From the NCBI GenBank assembly GCA_022616555.1, contig JAKEEG010000066.1:1702-65701 (forward strand): a DNA stretch of 64,000 bases, given 5' to 3'. Under the pieces are notes generated by a model. That model made no database searches and was not told the DNA's origin. It worked only from the letters and a program-made list of their open reading frames with translations. This stretch comes from Ignavibacteriota bacterium. Its GTDB lineage: Bacteria; Bacteroidota; Ignavibacteria; UBA10030. Within the stretch, counting starts at the first letter, position 1. Each line of letters begins with the position of its first letter. Positions 1,171-40,797 of this stretch are shown one piece after another. A program made the translations under genes and the position numbers.

Positions 1171-1212
1171 AGAAGGAAACAGAAGACAGGAGTCAGAAAA
1201 CAGAAGTTAGGA

Positions 1213-1596
1213 ATGGATGCCCCATACATGGATAGAGAGCCTGCGAAAACTTTTGAAGACCTTATCGTTTGGCAAAAGGCTCATCAGTTTGTGCTATCCG
1301 TGTACAAGTTAACAGAGGCTTTTCCAAAACAGGAGACGTACGGTCTGACTTCTCAACTACGCCGAGCGGCAGTGTCAATAGCGGCAAATATCGCAGAGGG
1401 TTTTAAGAAAAAGGGAAAGCCGGATAAAGTGAGGTTTATGAATGTAAGCCAAGGATCTGTTGAAGAATGTCGCTATTATCTCATTCTCGCACGAGACCTG
1501 GGTTATGGAAATACAACGCAACTCTCTGAACAATTAATCGAAGTAAGTAAAATATTACAATCGTATTCATATTCTATTCTGAATTCTGTCTCCTGA
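1213..1596 (+). CDS. four-helix-bundle protein (23S rRNA intervening-sequence protein family, TIGR02436-like)
   Basis: 127 aa. Motifs LIVWQKAHQFVLSVYKLTEAFPK...QLRRAAVSIAANIAEG...ECRYYLILARDLGY are characteristic of this family. GC is markedly lower than in the neighbouring genes. Confidence 0.75.
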   Translation: MDAPYMDREPAKTFEDLIVWQKAHQFVLSVYKLTEAFPKQETYGLTSQLRRAAVSIAANIAEGFKKKGKPDKVRFMNVSQGSVEECRYYLILARDLGYGNTTQLSEQLIEVSKILQSYSYSILNSVS

Positions 1597-1618
1597 CTCC
1601 TATTTACTGGGGTAATTT

Positions 1619-2888: not shown

Positions 2889-3794
2889 GTGAATACGATT
2901 CAATTCTATAACGATAATTCTGAAGCCGCTGTCGATCAGCTGGAGCAAAACGGCATTACCGCGTGCGTTCGTCATGCCTTGGAAGAGGATATCGGCACTG
3001 GCGATGTTACTACTAATCAGATAGTTGACGCGGAAGCAACCATACGAGGGGTAATTGTCGCGAAGCAAGAAGGCGTTGTCACAGGACTTGATATCGCTCA
3101 GCTTGCGTTTCAGCTTGTAGATGAGAAGGTAGCGTTTAAGACGCTTGTTGATGAAGGTACAGGAGTCGTCAGCCGACAATATCTTGCAGAAATTGAAGGT
3201 CCAGCGCGAGCTATTTTGTCTGCCGAGCGGACCGCCCTGAATTTTCTTTCCCGCATGTCCGGCATTGCAACATTGACCGACCGGTTTGTGCATGCCGTTC
3301 GGGGAACACAAGCAGTCATACTCGATACGCGAAAAACGGCTCCAGGCCTTCGTATAATTGACAAGCTTGCTGTTCGCCGCGGAGGGGGAACGAACCATCG
3401 CATGGGGTTATTCGATATGATACTGATTAAGGATAACCACATCGATACTGTGGGCTTGCTTGGTCAGGCCGTGCAACGCGCGCGAGCAGCGAATGAACAG
3501 TCAGAAATTGAAGTCGAAGCGCGTACTCTTGGGGAAGTTGAACAGGCGCTGGAACTGGGCGTTAAACGAATATTGTTGGACAATATGACGATTGAGATGT
3601 TGCGGGAAGCGGTTCGCCTCTCGGCCGGAAGAGCAGAACTTGAGGCTTCCGGCAATATTACTCTGGAAAATGTGCGCGAGATTGCAGCGACCGGGGTGAA
3701 GTATATTTCCGTTGGCGCATTGACGCACTCAGCGCCCGCGTTTGATGTTAGTCTTAAGTATGTAAAAGACTCATACACGAGAAGGGATATGTAA
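2889..3794 (+). CDS. nadC: nicotinate-nucleotide pyrophosphorylase (carboxylating), quinolinate phosphoribosyltransferase
   Basis: 301 aa with a GTG start preceded by an in-frame TAG. It has the EEDIGTGDVTT motif and a TIM-barrel C-terminal half, and is immediately followed by nadA. Confidence 0.85.
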   Translation: MNTIQFYNDNSEAAVDQLEQNGITACVRHALEEDIGTGDVTTNQIVDAEATIRGVIVAKQEGVVTGLDIAQLAFQLVDEKVAFKTLVDEGTGVVSRQYLAEIEGPARAILSAERTALNFLSRMSGIATLTDRFVHAVRGTQAVILDTRKTAPGLRIIDKLAVRRGGGTNHRMGLFDMILIKDNHIDTVGLLGQAVQRARAANEQSEIEVEARTLGEVEQALELGVKRILLDNMTIEMLREAVRLSAGRAELEASGNITLENVREIAATGVKYISVGALTHSAPAFDVSLKYVKDSYTRRDM

Positions 3795-17116: not shown

Positions 17117-17863
17117 ATGAAAATTGCAGTGTGCATTAACCACGTTCCCGATACGGAAACGAAAGTTAAAGTCGGCGCCGACGGCAAGAGTATTGACCGC
17201 GCGGGAGTGAACTTCATCATCAACCCGTACGACGAGTTTGCGGTCGAAGAGGCGCTCCGTATTAAAGAGAAGCAGACCGGGGAGGTTGTTGTGCTTTCGC
17301 TTGGCGGCGATACACACAAGGAAACACTCCGGAAAGCCCTTGCCATGGGGGTCGACAAAGCTGTGTTGCTGAAAGATGACACTCCGCGTGATTCATACTC
17401 AGTTGCCGCAGCACTCTCGGCAGCGTTGAAGGAGCTCGCGCCGGAGGTGGTGCTGTTCGGCAAGCAGTCGATTGATTCGGACGATGCGGCGGTTGGGTTG
17501 ATGGTGGCGGAAATGCTGGGCTGGGCGTCCGTGGCTGTGGCGGTGAAAGTGGAAATTGCCGACGGCAAAGTCACAGCCGAACGCGAAATCGAAGGCGGGC
17601 ATGAGAAAGTTGAGGCAACGCTGCCGGTCGTTATTACGGCGCAGAAGGGGTTGAACGAGCCCCGGTATCCATCGCTCAAGGGCATCATGGCGGCAAAGAG
17701 CAAGCCAATCGAGGAAAAACCGCCCGCACCAGCACAGAACCGCGCTGAAGTTGTGGAAATGCGCAAACCACCTGCAAAAAGCGCGGGCAAGATTGTCGGC
17801 ACCGGAGCGGATGCTGTGCCCGAGCTGGTGCGATTATTGCACGAAGAAGCAAAAGTCATTTGA
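17117..17863 (+). CDS. etfB: electron transfer flavoprotein beta subunit
   Basis: 248 aa. The start MKIAVCINHVPDTETKV is typical of EtfB. Confidence 0.9.
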   Translation: MKIAVCINHVPDTETKVKVGADGKSIDRAGVNFIINPYDEFAVEEALRIKEKQTGEVVVLSLGGDTHKETLRKALAMGVDKAVLLKDDTPRDSYSVAAALSAALKELAPEVVLFGKQSIDSDDAAVGLMVAEMLGWASVAVAVKVEIADGKVTAEREIEGGHEKVEATLPVVITAQKGLNEPRYPSLKGIMAAKSKPIEEKPPAPAQNRAEVVEMRKPPAKSAGKIVGTGADAVPELVRLLHEEAKVI

Positions 17864-17910
17864 ATGCAGAGTGCAGAATGCAGATTGTAGAGTGAGAATA
17901 ATGTTGGTTA

Positions 17911-17997: not shown

Positions 17998-18972
17998 ATG
18001 AAAATTTTGGCATTTGCCGAACAACGAGACGGACAGCTTAAGAAGAACGCATTTGAAGTCGTAAGCGCCGCAAAGAAAATCGCCGAGCAAACGAACGGAG
18101 AAGTCGTTGCGCTTGTTATAGGAGAAGGAGTAGAGGGGATAGCAGCGGCGCTCGGCGGATATGGCGCAAAACGGGTGGTGGTAGTCGACGATGCGCGGTT
18201 GAAACTGTATTCTAGCACGGCATACGCGAAGATCATTGCCGAAGTTGCCGGGAAGGAATCCGCAAGCGTCGTGTTGCTCGCTGCGACGGCGATGGGCAAG
18301 GACGCCGCTCCCCGCGTTGCGGTCAAGTTGGAGGCGGGACTTGCCGTCGATTGCGTTGCGCTGAAAGTCGACGGCGGCGATATTATCGCCACGCGCCCGG
18401 TGTACGCCGGCAAAGCGCAAACGGATATTAAGGTGACAACAAGTGTGAAAGTTTTATCCCTGCGCCCGAACGTGTTCACTGCCGGAACAAGCAACGGAGC
18501 GCAAGCGCCTGTAGAAAAAACGAACGTATCGCTGACGGACGCGGATTTTGCATCCGTTGTAAGAGAGGTGACGCAAGCCACAGGAAAGCTGGATGTTGCC
18601 GAGGCTGATATCATCGTCTCCGGCGGCAGGGGCTTGAAAGGGCCGGAGAATTTCAATATCATCGAAGAGCTGGCAGCGGCGCTCGGCGCAGCCGTAGGAG
18701 CCTCACGCGCGGTGGTCGATGCGGGATGGCGGCCGCACGACGAACAGGTAGGGCAAACGGGTAAAACTGTCTCGCCTTCGCTGTATGTTGCGGTTGCGAT
18801 TTCCGGAGCCATCCAACACCTTGCAGGTATGTCGTCTTCGAAGTATATTGTAGCGATTAACAAGGACAAGGCCGCTCCGATTTTTCAAGTTGCGGATTAC
18901 GGCATCGTGGGCGACGCGTTTGAAATCGTGCCCGCGTTGACAAAGGAAGTGAAAAAGTTGCATGGGAAGTAG
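17998..18972 (+). CDS. etfA: electron transfer flavoprotein alpha subunit
   Basis: 324 aa with the EtfA FAD-binding C-terminal region (SGAIQHLAGM). Confidence 0.9.
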   Translation: MKILAFAEQRDGQLKKNAFEVVSAAKKIAEQTNGEVVALVIGEGVEGIAAALGGYGAKRVVVVDDARLKLYSSTAYAKIIAEVAGKESASVVLLAATAMGKDAAPRVAVKLEAGLAVDCVALKVDGGDIIATRPVYAGKAQTDIKVTTSVKVLSLRPNVFTAGTSNGAQAPVEKTNVSLTDADFASVVREVTQATGKLDVAEADIIVSGGRGLKGPENFNIIEELAAALGAAVGASRAVVDAGWRPHDEQVGQTGKTVSPSLYVAVAISGAIQHLAGMSSSKYIVAINKDKAAPIFQVADYGIVGDAFEIVPALTKEVKKLHGK

Positions 18973-38031: not shown

Positions 38032-38568
38032 CTATTCAAAATACCCTGTGTAAGTCCACTCGCGTCGTCTGCCAGTTTCGTCTATATACACAGTAATGGT
38101 ATTGAGTTCGTCCAACTTGGAAACTCCAGTGAATCTAATTGTATCTTTTAAAGCCACGGTTACACGGTACACACCATTTTCTGTTTCAGCCATCTCCTCG
38201 GGAATTTCGTAACCGAGATAGGAACCTGCGCCACCACCTTCGGAAGCCGGAAGAGTACGATACTGATAGGCGTTTGCACAAAGGTTGTTCAGTTCATTAA
38301 TCATACCATCTTTGTTCCAGCTAATACTTTGAGCGCTGAACATGCTTAAACCGACGGCAATCGCGATGCCAATGATAATTATCGTAAAAACACCAAAGAA
38401 TGTCCCGACAATACCAAGTATCATACCGCCTTGAGTCAAACCTTTTGCGCTGGCAGCTATAAGTCCAGCGCGGATTTTTTTCAAATCACTGTTGCCCATC
38501 ACCCACGCAGGGATTCCAAGGAAAGGTCCAAAGAGCAGTACGCTCAGAATGCCAAAAGTGAGTATCAT
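38032..38568 (-). CDS. DUF4190-like membrane protein with C-terminal soluble domain
   Basis: 178 aa with N-terminal TM helices in a pattern typical of DUF4190. The gene is AT-rich relative to its neighbours. Confidence 0.5.
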   Translation of the reverse strand: MILTFGILSVLLFGPFLGIPAWVMGNSDLKKIRAGLIAASAKGLTQGGMILGIVGTFFGVFTIIIIGIAIAVGLSMFSAQSISWNKDGMINELNNLCANAYQYRTLPASEGGGAGSYLGYEIPEEMAETENGVYRVTVALKDTIRFTGVSKLDELNTITVYIDETGRRREWTYTGYFE

Positions 38569-38768
38569 TGCGCCGCGACCGGGATCTGTTGCTTGTGTGC
38601 AGATGACTGAGGATTTTGTTGTGGGGTTGTCATCGAGAATTACTCACTTTTGTGTGGAAGATTGCTCGGCTGTTATTCTATCGTTGAACGGTTGTACATA
38701 ACAATCCCCCCCTCGCTGTAGATATACAGAGAGGACACGCTCTGCCCAAAAAATATTAAGCTGCTCAG

Positions 38769-39239
38769 TTATTTATTCAAAACCAGACAGCTCGCCATCA
38801 TGTCGTGCAGGCCTTGCTTTTTCTCCGTGAACGCCACCATAATATAGCCGATGTAGATGATCAGTCCGGAGAGAATTTTTCCGAAGTACCTGCCAGTCGC
38901 GCGTCCGAAGGAAATCCGGTTGCCGTTCATATCGGTAACGACAATGCCGAGCGCCATCTTGCCGAGCGTCGCCTGCTTGCTGGAAGACTCCATCAGAGCG
39001 AAGTAGAGCCATTGGAGAACAAAAAAGATGAGGCCAACGAGCATCATGCCTCCGAAAATACCGGCAGCCATAGCGGCTTGTTCTTCTTCACTCATGTATT
39101 GCATATCCTCGGCGTTCATCGAAGCAAATCCGGCTAAGCCGACGCCGAAGACCATCATCACAATGACGCATACAGCGCCAATAAGAATACCGTCGATAAG
39201 GTAAGCGGCGAACCGCTTCCAGAATCCTGCGTATGACAT
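38769..39239 (-). CDS. RDD family membrane protein
   Basis: 156 aa with the RDD-family motifs RFAAYLIDGILI and GLHDMMASCLV. Confidence 0.75.
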   Translation of the reverse strand: MSYAGFWKRFAAYLIDGILIGAVCVIVMMVFGVGLAGFASMNAEDMQYMSEEEQAAMAAGIFGGMMLVGLIFFVLQWLYFALMESSSKQATLGKMALGIVVTDMNGNRISFGRATGRYFGKILSGLIIYIGYIMVAFTEKKQGLHDMMASCLVLNK

Positions 39240-39302
39240 AACATACCTCCCGAAGTTGTGAATGGATGTACGGTACGAACGACTGGTTAAGGTGTGCGTA
39301 TG

Positions 39303-39785
39303 TTAAAAATTAGTTGAAAAGGAAAAGGATATTAGCTGTTTCCTTTCAACGTCGTCAAGTAATGTGCCTGAACTTGATCTTGATGTCATATTGTATTTTG
39401 TAACAGCCTCTTTCATCATCGACTTTGCATTGACGTCGAGAACGATGGCTGCGACAATGACTACACCACCGGCTACTGCCAATGCAGTATTAGACGGTTT
39501 TGATGCTAATCCGTAGCCGACAGAAAAACCACCCGCAAAAGAAAAAACATCTGCAATTGTCGATTGAGTATAACCGGATGAGTACAAAGCATATATCGAG
39601 GGATCGGGAGACGATTGTAGCATCTGTGTAAACTCTGCTGATGTAATCTCTTGATTCCCTCTTTTGTAGGACAACCCCCAAAATCCTTCATCAAATGCCA
39701 ATGTGTCCGTCCGTGAAGTCTGGGTTAAAAGACTCGGTGAATATAACAAGAGAAACAATATCAGTATAGATGTTGATTTAAACAT
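39303..39785 (-). CDS. hypothetical membrane/secreted protein
   Basis: The start is placed at 39785 (MFKSTSILILFLLLYS, a signal peptide, with GGAGAAAAAAAT upstream). There is a C-terminal TM segment. The gene is AT-rich. Confidence 0.45.
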   Translation of the reverse strand: MFKSTSILILFLLLYSPSLLTQTSRTDTLAFDEGFWGLSYKRGNQEITSAEFTQMLQSSPDPSIYALYSSGYTQSTIADVFSFAGGFSVGYGLASKPSNTALAVAGGVVIVAAIVLDVNAKSMMKEAVTKYNMTSRSSSGTLLDDVERKQLISFSFSTNF

Positions 39786-39939
39786 ATTTTTTTCTCCATA
39801 GACGATTGATTTTTTCTTACACACTAACGGACTGGGCTAACCGCTACTCATTGAAGCTTGAGTTCAATTCGCTCATCATCCATCAAGATGATCGACTGAT
39901 CCAGAACTTGTTGACCGGTAATATCCTTGTTCTTGTACT

Positions 39940-40797
39940 TCAGAACGGTTTCCCTGGGAATGAGGAAACGGTAGAGGACATTTGTGCCGGCTGAGTATGT
40001 TTCTGCAAAACTCTTTGCCTCTCCAACAATGGAAAGGTCGTAGCCGTAAAAGGCCTCTGAATCTCCGAGCTGCTCATGAAGGGGGCAAGCGCTCTTTTGA
40101 CGACCTCGTCAAACAATGTTTTCGCTATATCATATTTACTCAGTTTTAAGGAATTATACGTATTAGTGTCGATAAATTTGAGTGTGAGATACTTTTTCTC
40201 TTTAAAAGACACGATTTGTATTGTTTGAACTTCCATGTAGGTATCGGAACGAATGCTTGACCGTAATGTGTCGATGATATTAAGGATATTCGCTTTGAGC
40301 GCCATCCCTTCCTGGGATGCGAGAAAATCGGGGTCAAAATAGTCGGTTGGTTTTACCAGCTCTACGGTTTCGAATGCAGTTGGTTTTTCGAGAGAGTAGT
40401 CTTCACCGTATTCTGCGTTCAGCGTCCCGCTCTTTTCGTAGTATCCATCCTTAGTGACCCTGTAATGGAGTTCCGATCTGTACGACCTTGGGTACTCATC
40501 TCCCGGTGCGGCGGTTGCACGGAATGATATGGAGATGAGCCCATCCGAATTGGTCATGACTGTTGTGTCTTGAACAAGTCTGTTAAGGTCAAAGGCAGAA
40601 TAATGAACAGATACACTCTCAGCGGGAAGTCCATAAACATCCACAATCGATAACGTATAGGTGTGGGTTACTGGTAGAGCCGGTTTTCTCTGAGGAATGT
40701 ACGTGAGATCGTACGGGGCGCAACCCGCGCTCACATAGAATGCGCCTACTCCGAGTACAAATCCCCAAAGAGTAAGGAGGAATTTTTGATTCTTCAT
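39940..40797 (-). CDS. hypothetical lipoprotein (odd low-complexity C-terminal tail; possible frameshift or decay)
   Basis: 285 aa with a signal peptide and lipobox-like VSAGC. The body is AT-rich, whereas the last roughly 50 codons are GC-rich and low-complexity. Confidence 0.4.
   Translation of the reverse strand: MKNQKFLLTLWGFVLGVGAFYVSAGCAPYDLTYIPQRKPALPVTHTYTLSIVDVYGLPAESVSVHYSAFDLNRLVQDTTVMTNSDGLISISFRATAAPGDEYPRSYRSELHYRVTKDGYYEKSGTLNAEYGEDYSLEKPTAFETVELVKPTDYFDPDFLASQEGMALKANILNIIDTLRSSIRSDTYMEVQTIQIVSFKEKKYLTLKFIDTNTYNSLKLSKYDIAKTLFDEVVKRALAPFMSSSEIQRPFTATTFPLLERQRVLQKHTQPAQMSSTVSSFPGKPF

Follow-up and report, generated by a model that had tools for sequence, protein, structure and literature searches.

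A four-helix-bundle gene between inverted heptamer arrays in an exporter operon of an Ignavibacteriota bacterium: a probable mRNA-borne counterpart of 23S rRNA intervening sequences

Background

The excision by RNase III of intervening sequences (IVSs) that carry an open reading frame (ORF) and end in terminal inverted repeats is already known, as are the heptamers in the IVS of Coxiella (PMC4990558). In Coxiella, the IVS spans 428 nt, contains an S23p ORF and has a terminal stem of 28 bp; the ATG of this ORF is preceded by three tandem GACAGAT units and GACAGAA, the copy number differs between strains, and cleavage by RNase III at the first repeat has been shown experimentally (PMC4990558). 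Also established are the wide occurrence of the PF05635 family, its relation to Avd, and the over-representation of intergenic heptamers, which lie mostly between co-directional genes, near the upstream stop codon or the downstream start codon, and which in Xanthomonas commonly form convergent pairs of arrays (PMC4692102, PMC4679880). Here we analyze a stretch of 64,000 nucleotides from an Ignavibacteriota bacterium (positions 1,702 to 65,701 of contig JAKEEG010000066.1, assembly GCA_022616555.1; hereafter the window, numbered from its first letter), in which a PF05635 gene for a four-helix-bundle (4HB) protein is located between two permease genes, permA and permB, of an exporter operon. Positions 1173-1609, which comprise this gene and the inverted heptamer arrays on its two sides, are probably an IVS-type cassette of ~435 bp that is carried in the mRNA of the exporter operon and looped out of it.

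A four-helix-bundle gene bracketed by inverted heptamer arrays

The 5' arm of the cassette (positions 1173-1214, + strand), delineated by repeat analysis, consists of six tandem 7-nt units (AAGGAAA CAGAAGA CAGGAGT CAGAAAA CAGAAGT TAGGAAT), begins 3 nt past the permA stop codon and is purine-rich (CAGRAKN type). The 3' arm (1568-1609, + strand; repeat analysis and predicted duplex) also consists of six 7-nt units, which on the minus strand read CAGTAAA TAGGAGT CAGGAGA CAGAATT CAGAATA GAATATG; it is the reverse complement of the 5' unit type and is pyrimidine-rich on the sense strand. Each full arm is 42 nt long, and together the two bracket the 4HB ORF, the last ~8 codons and TGA stop (1594-1596) of which fall within the 3' arm. 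An earlier inspection of the letters of this DNA (hereafter the sequence-only reading) had noticed the core of this structure as an 8-bp inverted repeat, GGAGTCAG at 1189-1196 (+) and CTGACTCC at 1593-1600 (+). The repeat is exact at these positions, the left half being the best-paired core of the 5' arm and the right half including the stop codon, as had been pointed out; a repeat finder extends the 8-mers to 32-nt arms (1174-1205 and 1577-1608) that are 78% complementary. The accompanying reservation that the repeat might be due to chance can be dropped: the arm-arm complementarity score is 42 in the window, compared with a mean of 16.0 (sd 3.3) and a maximum of 29 among 1500 equally spaced control pairs, none of which reached 42, and the repeat looks functional.

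At the RNA level, the two arms are predicted to form an imperfect duplex of ~30 bp (-36.4 kcal/mol), and the minimum free energy and centroid folds of positions 1160-1630 are both closed by the arm stem (z = -2.1), such that the permA stop codon adjoins the permB start codon. Nucleotide identity of the arms between cassette-sharing lineages is 0.8-0.9, far in excess of the identity at third codon positions (0.44-0.53 for these lineages, and 0.33-0.53 over the full comparison), which indicates that the arms are constrained as nucleotide sequence. An Rfam search of positions 1000-1800 with E values up to 10 returned chance-level matches only, with no rRNA at the locus and no curated RNA family corresponding to the arms. 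No sigma-70-like promoter or terminator was detected on the + strand of the cassette in a scan that left Bacteroidota-type promoters aside.

The 4HB gene had been described in the sequence-only reading as a 127-aa TIGR02436-like ORF, and this ORF is present at 1213-1596 (+). However, because most of the close homologs are 122 aa long and their first methionine corresponds to window position 1228, the 122-aa gene at 1228-1596 (+) is the likelier one, with the in-frame ATG at 1213 as an alternative start. The identification as a protein-coding gene of this family draws on hidden Markov model matches, homolog lengths, a structure model and the ratio of nonsynonymous to synonymous divergence (dN/dS). 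The protein matches PF05635 (23S_rRNA_IVP) with 130 bits (curated cut-off 33.8) and TIGR02436 (four helix bundle protein) with 121.6 bits (curated cut-off 24). Its AlphaFold model, a monomer with a predicted local distance difference test score (pLDDT) of 94.8, contains four helices (residues 13-29, 34-60, 64-90 and 97-119) and superposes on XCC0516 (2GSC; TM-score 0.88-0.95, 37-40% identity, phmmer E = 1.3e-21) and BT_0352 (2RLD; TM-score 0.74-0.84) and, more distantly, on Avd of a diversity-generating retroelement (DGR; 4DWL, TM-score 0.77-0.87); identity to the Avd structures 4DWL, 8UBE and 8UB7, the latter two of which show Avd within a complex of reverse transcriptase, Avd and RNA, is 10-13%. 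The motif R-x3-S-x3-N-x2-E is present in the window protein as RAAVSIAANIAEG, and R46, S50, N54, A56, E57 and G58 (RxxxSxxxNxAEG) are invariant in an alignment of 36 sequences that includes rRNA-borne members; of the motif published for this family, GxxRxxxSxxxNxxE (PMC3936711), the leading G is not found at that spacing in the window protein. The protein is under strong purifying selection (dN/dS of 0.02-0.03 where synonymous divergence is measurable, and 0.15 for a closer pair, L015/L016; here and below, L### denotes the loci of fetched relatives and WIN the copy in the window).

Considering its homology to the pentameric XCC0516 and, more distantly, to Avd, which binds RNA and reverse transcriptase, the most likely role of the 4HB protein is one that serves the element itself, in its maintenance or its movement, through an action on nucleic acid. 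The resemblance to Avd could be taken further, namely that the gene is the Avd gene of a DGR or its remnant: the fold is the same, and there are weak matches to the bAvd (PF22296, 26.5 bits) and DivGenRetAVD (NF033474, 30 bits) profiles. However, both scores fall below the curated cut-offs (40 and 80, respectively), the genes called over 6 kb to each side include no reverse transcriptase, and neither template or variable repeats nor any long direct repeat is seen in the region; furthermore, a scan of the IMG/VR viral collection identified no relatives of the 4HB protein, and a PADLOC scan gave no match to the gene. We consider a DGR origin of the window gene highly improbable.

Gene-plus-arms units in other loci

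A metagenome scan yielded 80 loci, with proteins 65-86% identical, among which 68 distinct genes have both flanks. At least two CAGRAKN units are located within 80 nt upstream of the gene in 50 of these 68 loci, at least two reverse-complement units are found around the stop codon in 55, and both arrays are recognizable in 40, compared with 1.1% of background segments reaching at least two units. The start codon is often embedded in the array as CAGA-ATG, and the stop codon as CTCC-TGA-CTCC. The arms of one locus are more complementary to each other than to the arms of other loci (mean score 33.6 vs 29.6, matched in 0 of 5000 permutations; 18.1 for shuffled arms), and the predicted duplexes, with a family median of -34.8 kcal/mol (-21.4 for shuffled arms), include at least 20 pairs in 66 of 70 loci. 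Even the unit length co-varies across the two arms: in L082 and in Picosynechococcus (L150), both consist of 8-mers.

Plasmid copies from Nostoc and Aulosira that share 72.5% identity with the window protein have the same CAGGAGT/CAGAAGT arms. Distant subfamilies (33-51% identity) are flanked by other units with a period of 7 or 8, and in six of the nine sampled plasmid loci a purine-rich array on the 5' side is combined with its complement on the 3' side (GGTGACA, GGGAAAA, CAGAGGG, AAGGTTC, GGGGAGA). Subfamily and unit do not co-vary strictly: L150 (67% identity) bears GGAGATAA units, and the distant L151, L156 and L157 bear CAGRRGN-like units. A simple scheme of recognition by the protein of its own repeat sequence is therefore not supported.

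The window contains a single 4HB gene, with no second copy found in its 64 kb by tblastn, and two cassettes occur within a few kilobases of each other in L084, L125 and L148. In L084 (250-720) and L125 (690-1160), the second cassette is 1.3-2 kb from the first; that of L084 is a pseudogene with intact arms, in which a frameshift has left two ORFs, of 70 and 58 aa. CAGGAGT-type arms also surround ORF-less cargo of 110-250 nt in L148 (180-520 and 4060-4300) and L115 (3950-4290), and the two ORF-less copies of Aulosira share a structured-looking internal sequence with no Rfam match. Elsewhere in L115, a TwoAYGGAY RNA (RF01731, 50.8 bits; 355-513) is located just 3' of a 5'-type array (267-288), with a complementary array at 1161-1189. 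Related operons on two Nostoc plasmids (L149 and L155) harbor 4HB genes from different subfamilies, 72% and 38% identical to the window protein, which occupy neighboring junctions: one precedes and the other follows the same small gene (WP_104899637.1).

Relation to 23S rRNA intervening sequences

The label '23S rRNA intervening-sequence type', under which the window gene had been described in the sequence-only reading, turned out to be apt, given that genuine IVSs carry the same family between the same heptamer arms. In L157 from Azospirillum lipoferum, the 4HB ORF lies inside a 23S rRNA gene (Rfam LSU), which accounts for the lack of an annotated gene, and is flanked by CAGAGGA/CGGAGGA units and their complement. 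All six relatives of this ORF that were fetched on longer contigs (L160, L162, L164, L165, L166 and L167) are likewise inside 23S rRNA genes. Four of them (L160, L162, L164 and L165) are located ~1170 nt into the 23S gene, that is, at the helix-45 site named in PMC4990558. The ORF of L166, the contig of which starts inside the 23S gene, is at the corresponding point of the model. In L167, the ORF lies ~520 nt into the gene, which we take to be the helix-25 site. The rRNA-borne arms, e.g. CAGAAGT CAGTAGT CAGAAGT CGGAAGT CAGAAGA upstream and TCTGACT TCTGACT TCTGACT TCTGGCT TCTGA downstream, are of the unit type found in the window.

Given that genuine rRNA IVSs bear the same gene family and the same unit type, the window cassette can be regarded as an IVS-type element that sits in mRNA; as far as sequence comparison goes, the gene-plus-arms units and the genuine 23S rRNA IVSs are shown to be the same in kind. 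In the plasmid collection, no rRNA-borne copies were found beyond Azospirillum. The relatives of the rRNA-borne 4HB ORF are almost all on contigs shorter than 3 kb, as is expected from the poor assembly of rRNA operons; genome bins therefore probably underestimate the number of IVS-borne copies.

Insertion into the exporter operon and its age

The exporter operon has the gene order membrane-fusion protein (HlyD-like), ABC ATPase, permease, permease. The third gene, permA (10-1170, +), and the downstream permB (1619-2794, +) each show Pfam matches to MacB_PCD and FtsX and are distant paralogs (24% identity, E = 2e-12), in agreement with the two paralogous FtsX permeases recognized in the sequence-only reading. 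The gap downstream of the 4HB gene is 22 bp, as stated there, and the upstream gap is 42 bp rather than 41 (57 bp when counted from the start at 1228). A protein identical to that of the window is recorded from a metagenome-assembled genome of Ignavibacteriae, where the genes for the membrane-fusion protein, ABC ATPase, permease, 4HB protein, permease, nadC and nadA follow each other on one strand. Comparison with empty sites, which read RAGGnTnnnn-ATG ahead of permB, identifies positions 1610-1618 (+) as a remnant of the native permA-permB spacer with the permB ribosome-binding region (GGGGTAATTT before ATG).

Using permA to scan one genome per species, we obtained 63 loci, of which 55 could be evaluated. 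The two permease genes are directly adjacent, without a 4HB gene, in ~47 of these 55 related operons, with gaps that are typically 0-70 nt and in many cases as tight as 0-20 nt; a 4HB gene is present at this junction in L006, L015, L016 and L028, as well as in the metagenome loci L003 and L068/L069. Thus, most relatives lack the three-gene arrangement of the window, and the 4HB gene is an insertion, as had been surmised from the sequence; it left the operon undisrupted, both permease genes being full length and on the same strand. The position within the operon, the co-orientation and the short gaps on both sides might also be expected of a dedicated accessory subunit or regulator of the ABC exporter. 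This reading is contradicted by the absence of the gene from ~85% of the orthologous operons and by the presence of close homologs in unrelated operons, and there is very little to be said for it.

The sequence-only reading had further considered the insertion recent and had noted the low GC content of the gene. The value of about 42% is accurate (41.7%) and lower than that of the flanking genes, although the 58% given for the latter is too high (53.0% and 54.3%); at third codon positions (GC3), the values are 37.5% for the 4HB gene and 64% and 70% for the permease genes. In the GC3 comparison that had been proposed, the 4HB gene ranks second-lowest among the 61 long ORFs of the window (z = -2.9). 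However, the GC content of the 4HB gene is below that of its flanks in 72 of 73 family loci, by 7.9 points on average, and it correlates with the GC content of the flanks over a range of 0.31 to 0.64 (r = 0.88). Low GC is therefore a family trait that tracks the host, and it says nothing about the date of the insertion. Only one other patch of the window is clearly low in GC (38032-40797, - strand); it contains three ORFs with GC3 of 0.36-0.49 and no Pfam match, amid genes for RDD, TM2 and outer membrane beta-barrel proteins.

The claim of recency itself is not sustained. The 4HB copies of WIN, L006, L068/L069 and L003 form one clade, within which the proportion of synonymous differences (pS) is 0.74-0.85, i.e. 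saturated (for WIN compared with L006 or L068, pS is 0.74 and dN 0.07-0.10), so that the cassette must be a long-term resident. In the tree of permA and permB, WIN, L068, L005 and L006 form one clade, with L005 as the sister of L006. L005 is the closest species representative without a 4HB gene: its 119-nt spacer (1380-1498) is a pure, expanded 5'-type array of ~16 CAGGAGA/CAGAAGA/CAGAAGT units in one orientation, immediately followed by the GTG start codon of permB, the ribosome-binding site (RBS) of which seems to be supplied by the array. Because L005 is sister to the gene-bearing L006, we read its state as a likely loss of the 4HB gene of the cassette. These data show that the cassette is old, has been inherited vertically within one clade of Ignavibacteria and has been lost at least once.

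The 4HB copies at the permease junction fall into three groups, {WIN, L006, L068, L003}, {L015, L016} and {L028}, which are no closer to one another than to copies from unrelated operons; the window protein is 80% identical to that of L004, from a methylmalonyl-CoA mutase (MCM) operon, and 71% identical to that of L015. The permeases of L003 are 66% identical to those of the window, yet for its 4HB protein the identity is 82% and its arms hardly differ, with gene-free lineages in between, which suggests repeated entry of the cassette into the same permease spacer. An ancient insertion followed by many losses is the alternative, the protein being short and its tree star-like.

Other operon junctions

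The family habitually occupies operon junctions, in several bacterial phyla. A same-strand upstream neighbor is found in 58 of 62 loci and a same-strand downstream neighbor in 52 of 64, with median gaps of 49 and 47 nt, respectively, and the neighbors that could be identified are mostly partners within one operon. Thus, in L004 the 4HB gene separates the genes for the large and the B12-binding subunits of MCM, and other junctions occupied by 4HB genes include those between HlyD and AcrB, HisH and HisA, an extracytoplasmic function sigma factor and its anti-sigma factor, FadB and thiolase (fadB and fadA), AroA and AroK, and DUF2760 and Hsp70. In three of these loci (L085, L104 and L105, near position 3000), an upstream HisH-like ORF continues across the 5' arm as far as a TGA overlapping the ATG of the 4HB gene (ATGA); the stop codon that this ORF originally had seems to have been replaced by the insertion.

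Some of the junctions are linked to CRISPR, namely those between cmr2 and cmr3 and between cas6 and cas4. The latter is found on a Pseudanabaena galeata plasmid (L153, 1090-1700), where ~14 AAAGCTA units lie upstream of the 4HB gene and ~10 AAAGCCA units downstream, in the same orientation. An earlier metagenomic study, which noted 18 such 4HB genes within cas loci, suggested that they are functionally associated (PMC3936711). The recurrence of the same 4HB units at unrelated operon junctions suggests, instead, that those in cas loci are passengers.

Heptamer arrays without the gene

In the same permease spacer, hairpins or arrays of other 7-9-nt units (e.g. AAAGCGC/ATAGCGC, CGCAGATTA and AGTGAAT) occur at empty sites of other Ignavibacteria and Nitrospirota (L021, L036, L041/L052, L047, L050, L055, L056, L011 and L044), and remnants of CAGRAGN arms are found in the permease spacers of L055 and L062; the permA-permB junction seems to collect such heptamer elements. 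The window itself contains a solo array of ~5 units (TGCAGAG TGCAGAA TGCAGAT TGTAGAG TGAGAAT; 17865-17894) within the 134-nt spacer between etfB (17117-17863) and etfA (17998-18972), another junction of subunit genes. This spacer contains no 4HB gene and no clear complementary arm.

Such cases raise the possibility that the heptamer arrays are primary, i.e. that they are simple-sequence repeats of the host, similar to the short tandemly repeated repetitive (STRR) sequences and GGGAATC, which arose by slippage and resemble an RBS, and that the 4HB protein is a settled host regulator, with no mobile unit involved. The existence of arrays on their own, including the 16 units of L005 and the etfB-etfA array, fits this scenario, as do the array hairpins at the permease junction of many species, the presence of AGGAG in the units and the excess of intergenic heptamers between co-directional genes in surveys (PMC4692102, PMC4679880). 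It is difficult to reconcile with the movement of gene and arms together between phyla with the same unit sequence, with the start and stop codons of the ORF that are built into the arrays, and with the occurrence of the same unit type around the gene inside rRNA, where an RBS-like array has no obvious use. On balance, we find this scenario rather unlikely.

A model of the cassette

Under the explanation that we favor, an IVS-type cassette in the operon transcript, the cassette, which is located after the permA stop codon and ahead of the permB ribosome-binding site, would have no promoter of its own and, given its co-orientation with the operon and the lack of detected promoter or terminator signals, would be transcribed by read-through from the host operon. 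The arms would then pair in the transcript into the imperfect ~30-bp duplex, and this stem would loop out the ORF and bring the permA stop codon and the permB start codon back together, which would explain how insertions are tolerated at junctions that are very tight in relatives. By analogy with the IVSs of Coxiella, Leptospira and Salmonella (PMC4990558), RNase III would cleave the arm duplex, and the host transcript would tolerate the insert.

Several observations weigh against this explanation. The RNase III step, probable as it appears, is carried over from rRNA IVSs only. Among the arm mismatches, G.U is not in excess of A.C (34 vs 45, p = 0.26), and therefore nothing indicates that pairing has been selected in the sense RNA rather than in the DNA. 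Of the 68 loci with both flanks, 28 have no recognizable pair of arrays, some of them having one array only, and in one subfamily (L153) the arrays are direct rather than inverted. The Coxiella S23p protein was judged probably not to be made, and its ORF to be decaying (PMC4990558). Finally, comparison of the junctions with empty sites and inspection of neighboring genes revealed no target-site duplication, transposase or recombinase associated with the cassettes, so that mobility is deduced from their distribution only.

Some of these observations are accommodated by a scenario in which the arms act at the DNA level, as the terminal inverted repeats of a foldback element or an element similar to a miniature inverted-repeat transposable element (MITE), read by the 4HB protein itself or by a recombinase whose gene lies elsewhere; RNA pairing would then be a by-product, and the scenario is compatible with the explanation favored here. 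The terminal inverted repeats are those expected of such an element, the mismatches show no G.U bias, the distribution is patchy and crosses phyla while gene and arms are conserved together, the same junction is filled, in hosts with no more than 63-66% identity, by 4HB copies that fail to group with each other, and the same arms flank ORF-less cargo in L148 and L115. Conversely, no consistent target-site duplication is seen at the junctions, no transposase is encoded in or near the cassettes, the co-orientation with host transcription is strong, and 6 of 9 plasmid loci retain, despite differing units, the polarity of a purine-rich 5' side and a pyrimidine-rich 3' side on the sense strand. The co-orientation and the conserved polarity suggest a role that depends on the transcript, and a DNA-level function of the arms seems to us possible but clearly the less likely option.

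Going beyond the window, the looped-out cassette may be one representative of a widespread, so far unrecognized class of mobile foldback cassettes that would unite PF05635 4HB genes with heptamer arrays. We put this forward tentatively and as a whole, with more doubt than confidence: the ORF-bearing IVSs known from 23S rRNA would represent no more than the fraction of cassettes that inserted into rRNA; intercistronic junctions would be targeted, or would be the sites where insertions survived, since the arms loop the cassette out; an Avd-like pentamer would be the nucleic-acid-binding factor of the element, serving its movement or maintenance; and the solo heptamer arrays (STRR-like, GGGAATC) over-represented in many bacteria would be what remains of cassettes that decayed or were lost.

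Implications

A full-text literature search retrieved no account of PF05635 genes in general being bracketed by inverted heptamer arrays, of such cassettes at intercistronic junctions of ordinary operons across phyla, or of rRNA IVSs as the same elements as operon cassettes; the only paper in this search that ties heptamers to an IVS is that on Coxiella (PMC4990558). Thousands of genes annotated as 'four helix bundle protein' or 'S23 ribosomal protein' are found in operons and are read as functional partners of their neighbors, e.g. as cas-associated (PMC3936711). If such genes are IVS-type hitch-hikers, these functional inferences are wrong. The hypothesis also offers a common origin for two puzzles, the sporadic ORF-bearing IVSs of 23S rRNA and the excess of intergenic heptamers, and a route to learning what the Avd superfamily's large non-DGR branch does. 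Furthermore, it predicts a natural intercistronic module processed by RNase III, that is, a foreign gene accommodated between translationally coupled genes without polarity, which could serve as a genetic insulator.

Comparison with known systems

An integron gene cassette was considered and rejected, the window containing a single cassette in a housekeeping-type operon with no integrase gene nearby. Repetitive extragenic palindromic (REP) sequences and their doublets (REPIN), together with REP-associated tyrosine transposases (RAYT), MITEs and eukaryotic foldback elements resemble the cassette in being short hairpin-forming repeats that are scattered in intergenic sites of operons, sometimes flank a putative mobilizing gene and have ORF-less derivatives; they differ in that the window cassette has no HUH or DDE transposase and that its ends are 7-nt arrays rather than a single palindrome. 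With the intergenic heptamers, such as the cyanobacterial STRR, GGGAATC of Xanthomonas, GGGGAYT of Nostoc and TAACTGA of Beggiatoaceae, the window arrays share the tandem 7-nt units located in spacers, but here they are the two ends of a gene cassette, and the surveys drew no connection to PF05635 or to IVSs (PMC4692102, PMC4679880).

Among proteins, DGR Avd (4DWL; 8UBE, 8UB7) has the four-helix-bundle fold and belongs to the same superfamily, from which the window protein is set apart by the low sequence identity and by scores below the curated Avd cut-offs. XCC0516 (2GSC) and BT_0352 (2RLD), 4HB pentamers solved by structural genomics, are of the same family and fold as the window protein. 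The gene for XCC0516 itself, beside bccP, has a GGGAATC x4 array that overlaps its start codon (PMC4692102 supplement; the paper makes no link to the gene family), and this heptamer is different from the unit of the window.

The closest counterparts of the cassette are the 23S rRNA IVSs of the Leptospira, Coxiella burnetii, Brucella and Xanthomonas type. The window copy differs from these in its location, an intercistronic mRNA spacer rather than helix 9, 25 or 45 of 23S rRNA, and from the Coxiella IVS in particular in that strong purifying selection acts on its ORF, while decay was concluded for the Coxiella ORF, and in that the RNase III cut is experimental in Coxiella (PMC4990558), whereas the window structure is known from the predicted duplex. 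In other respects the correspondence is close: an element of ~430 nt with a sense-oriented PF05635 (S23p) ORF, terminal inverted repeats that form a long stem, tandem heptamers ahead of the ATG, an AG-rich 5' arm and a unit type of the window, CAGAAGT, that occurs in genuine IVSs.

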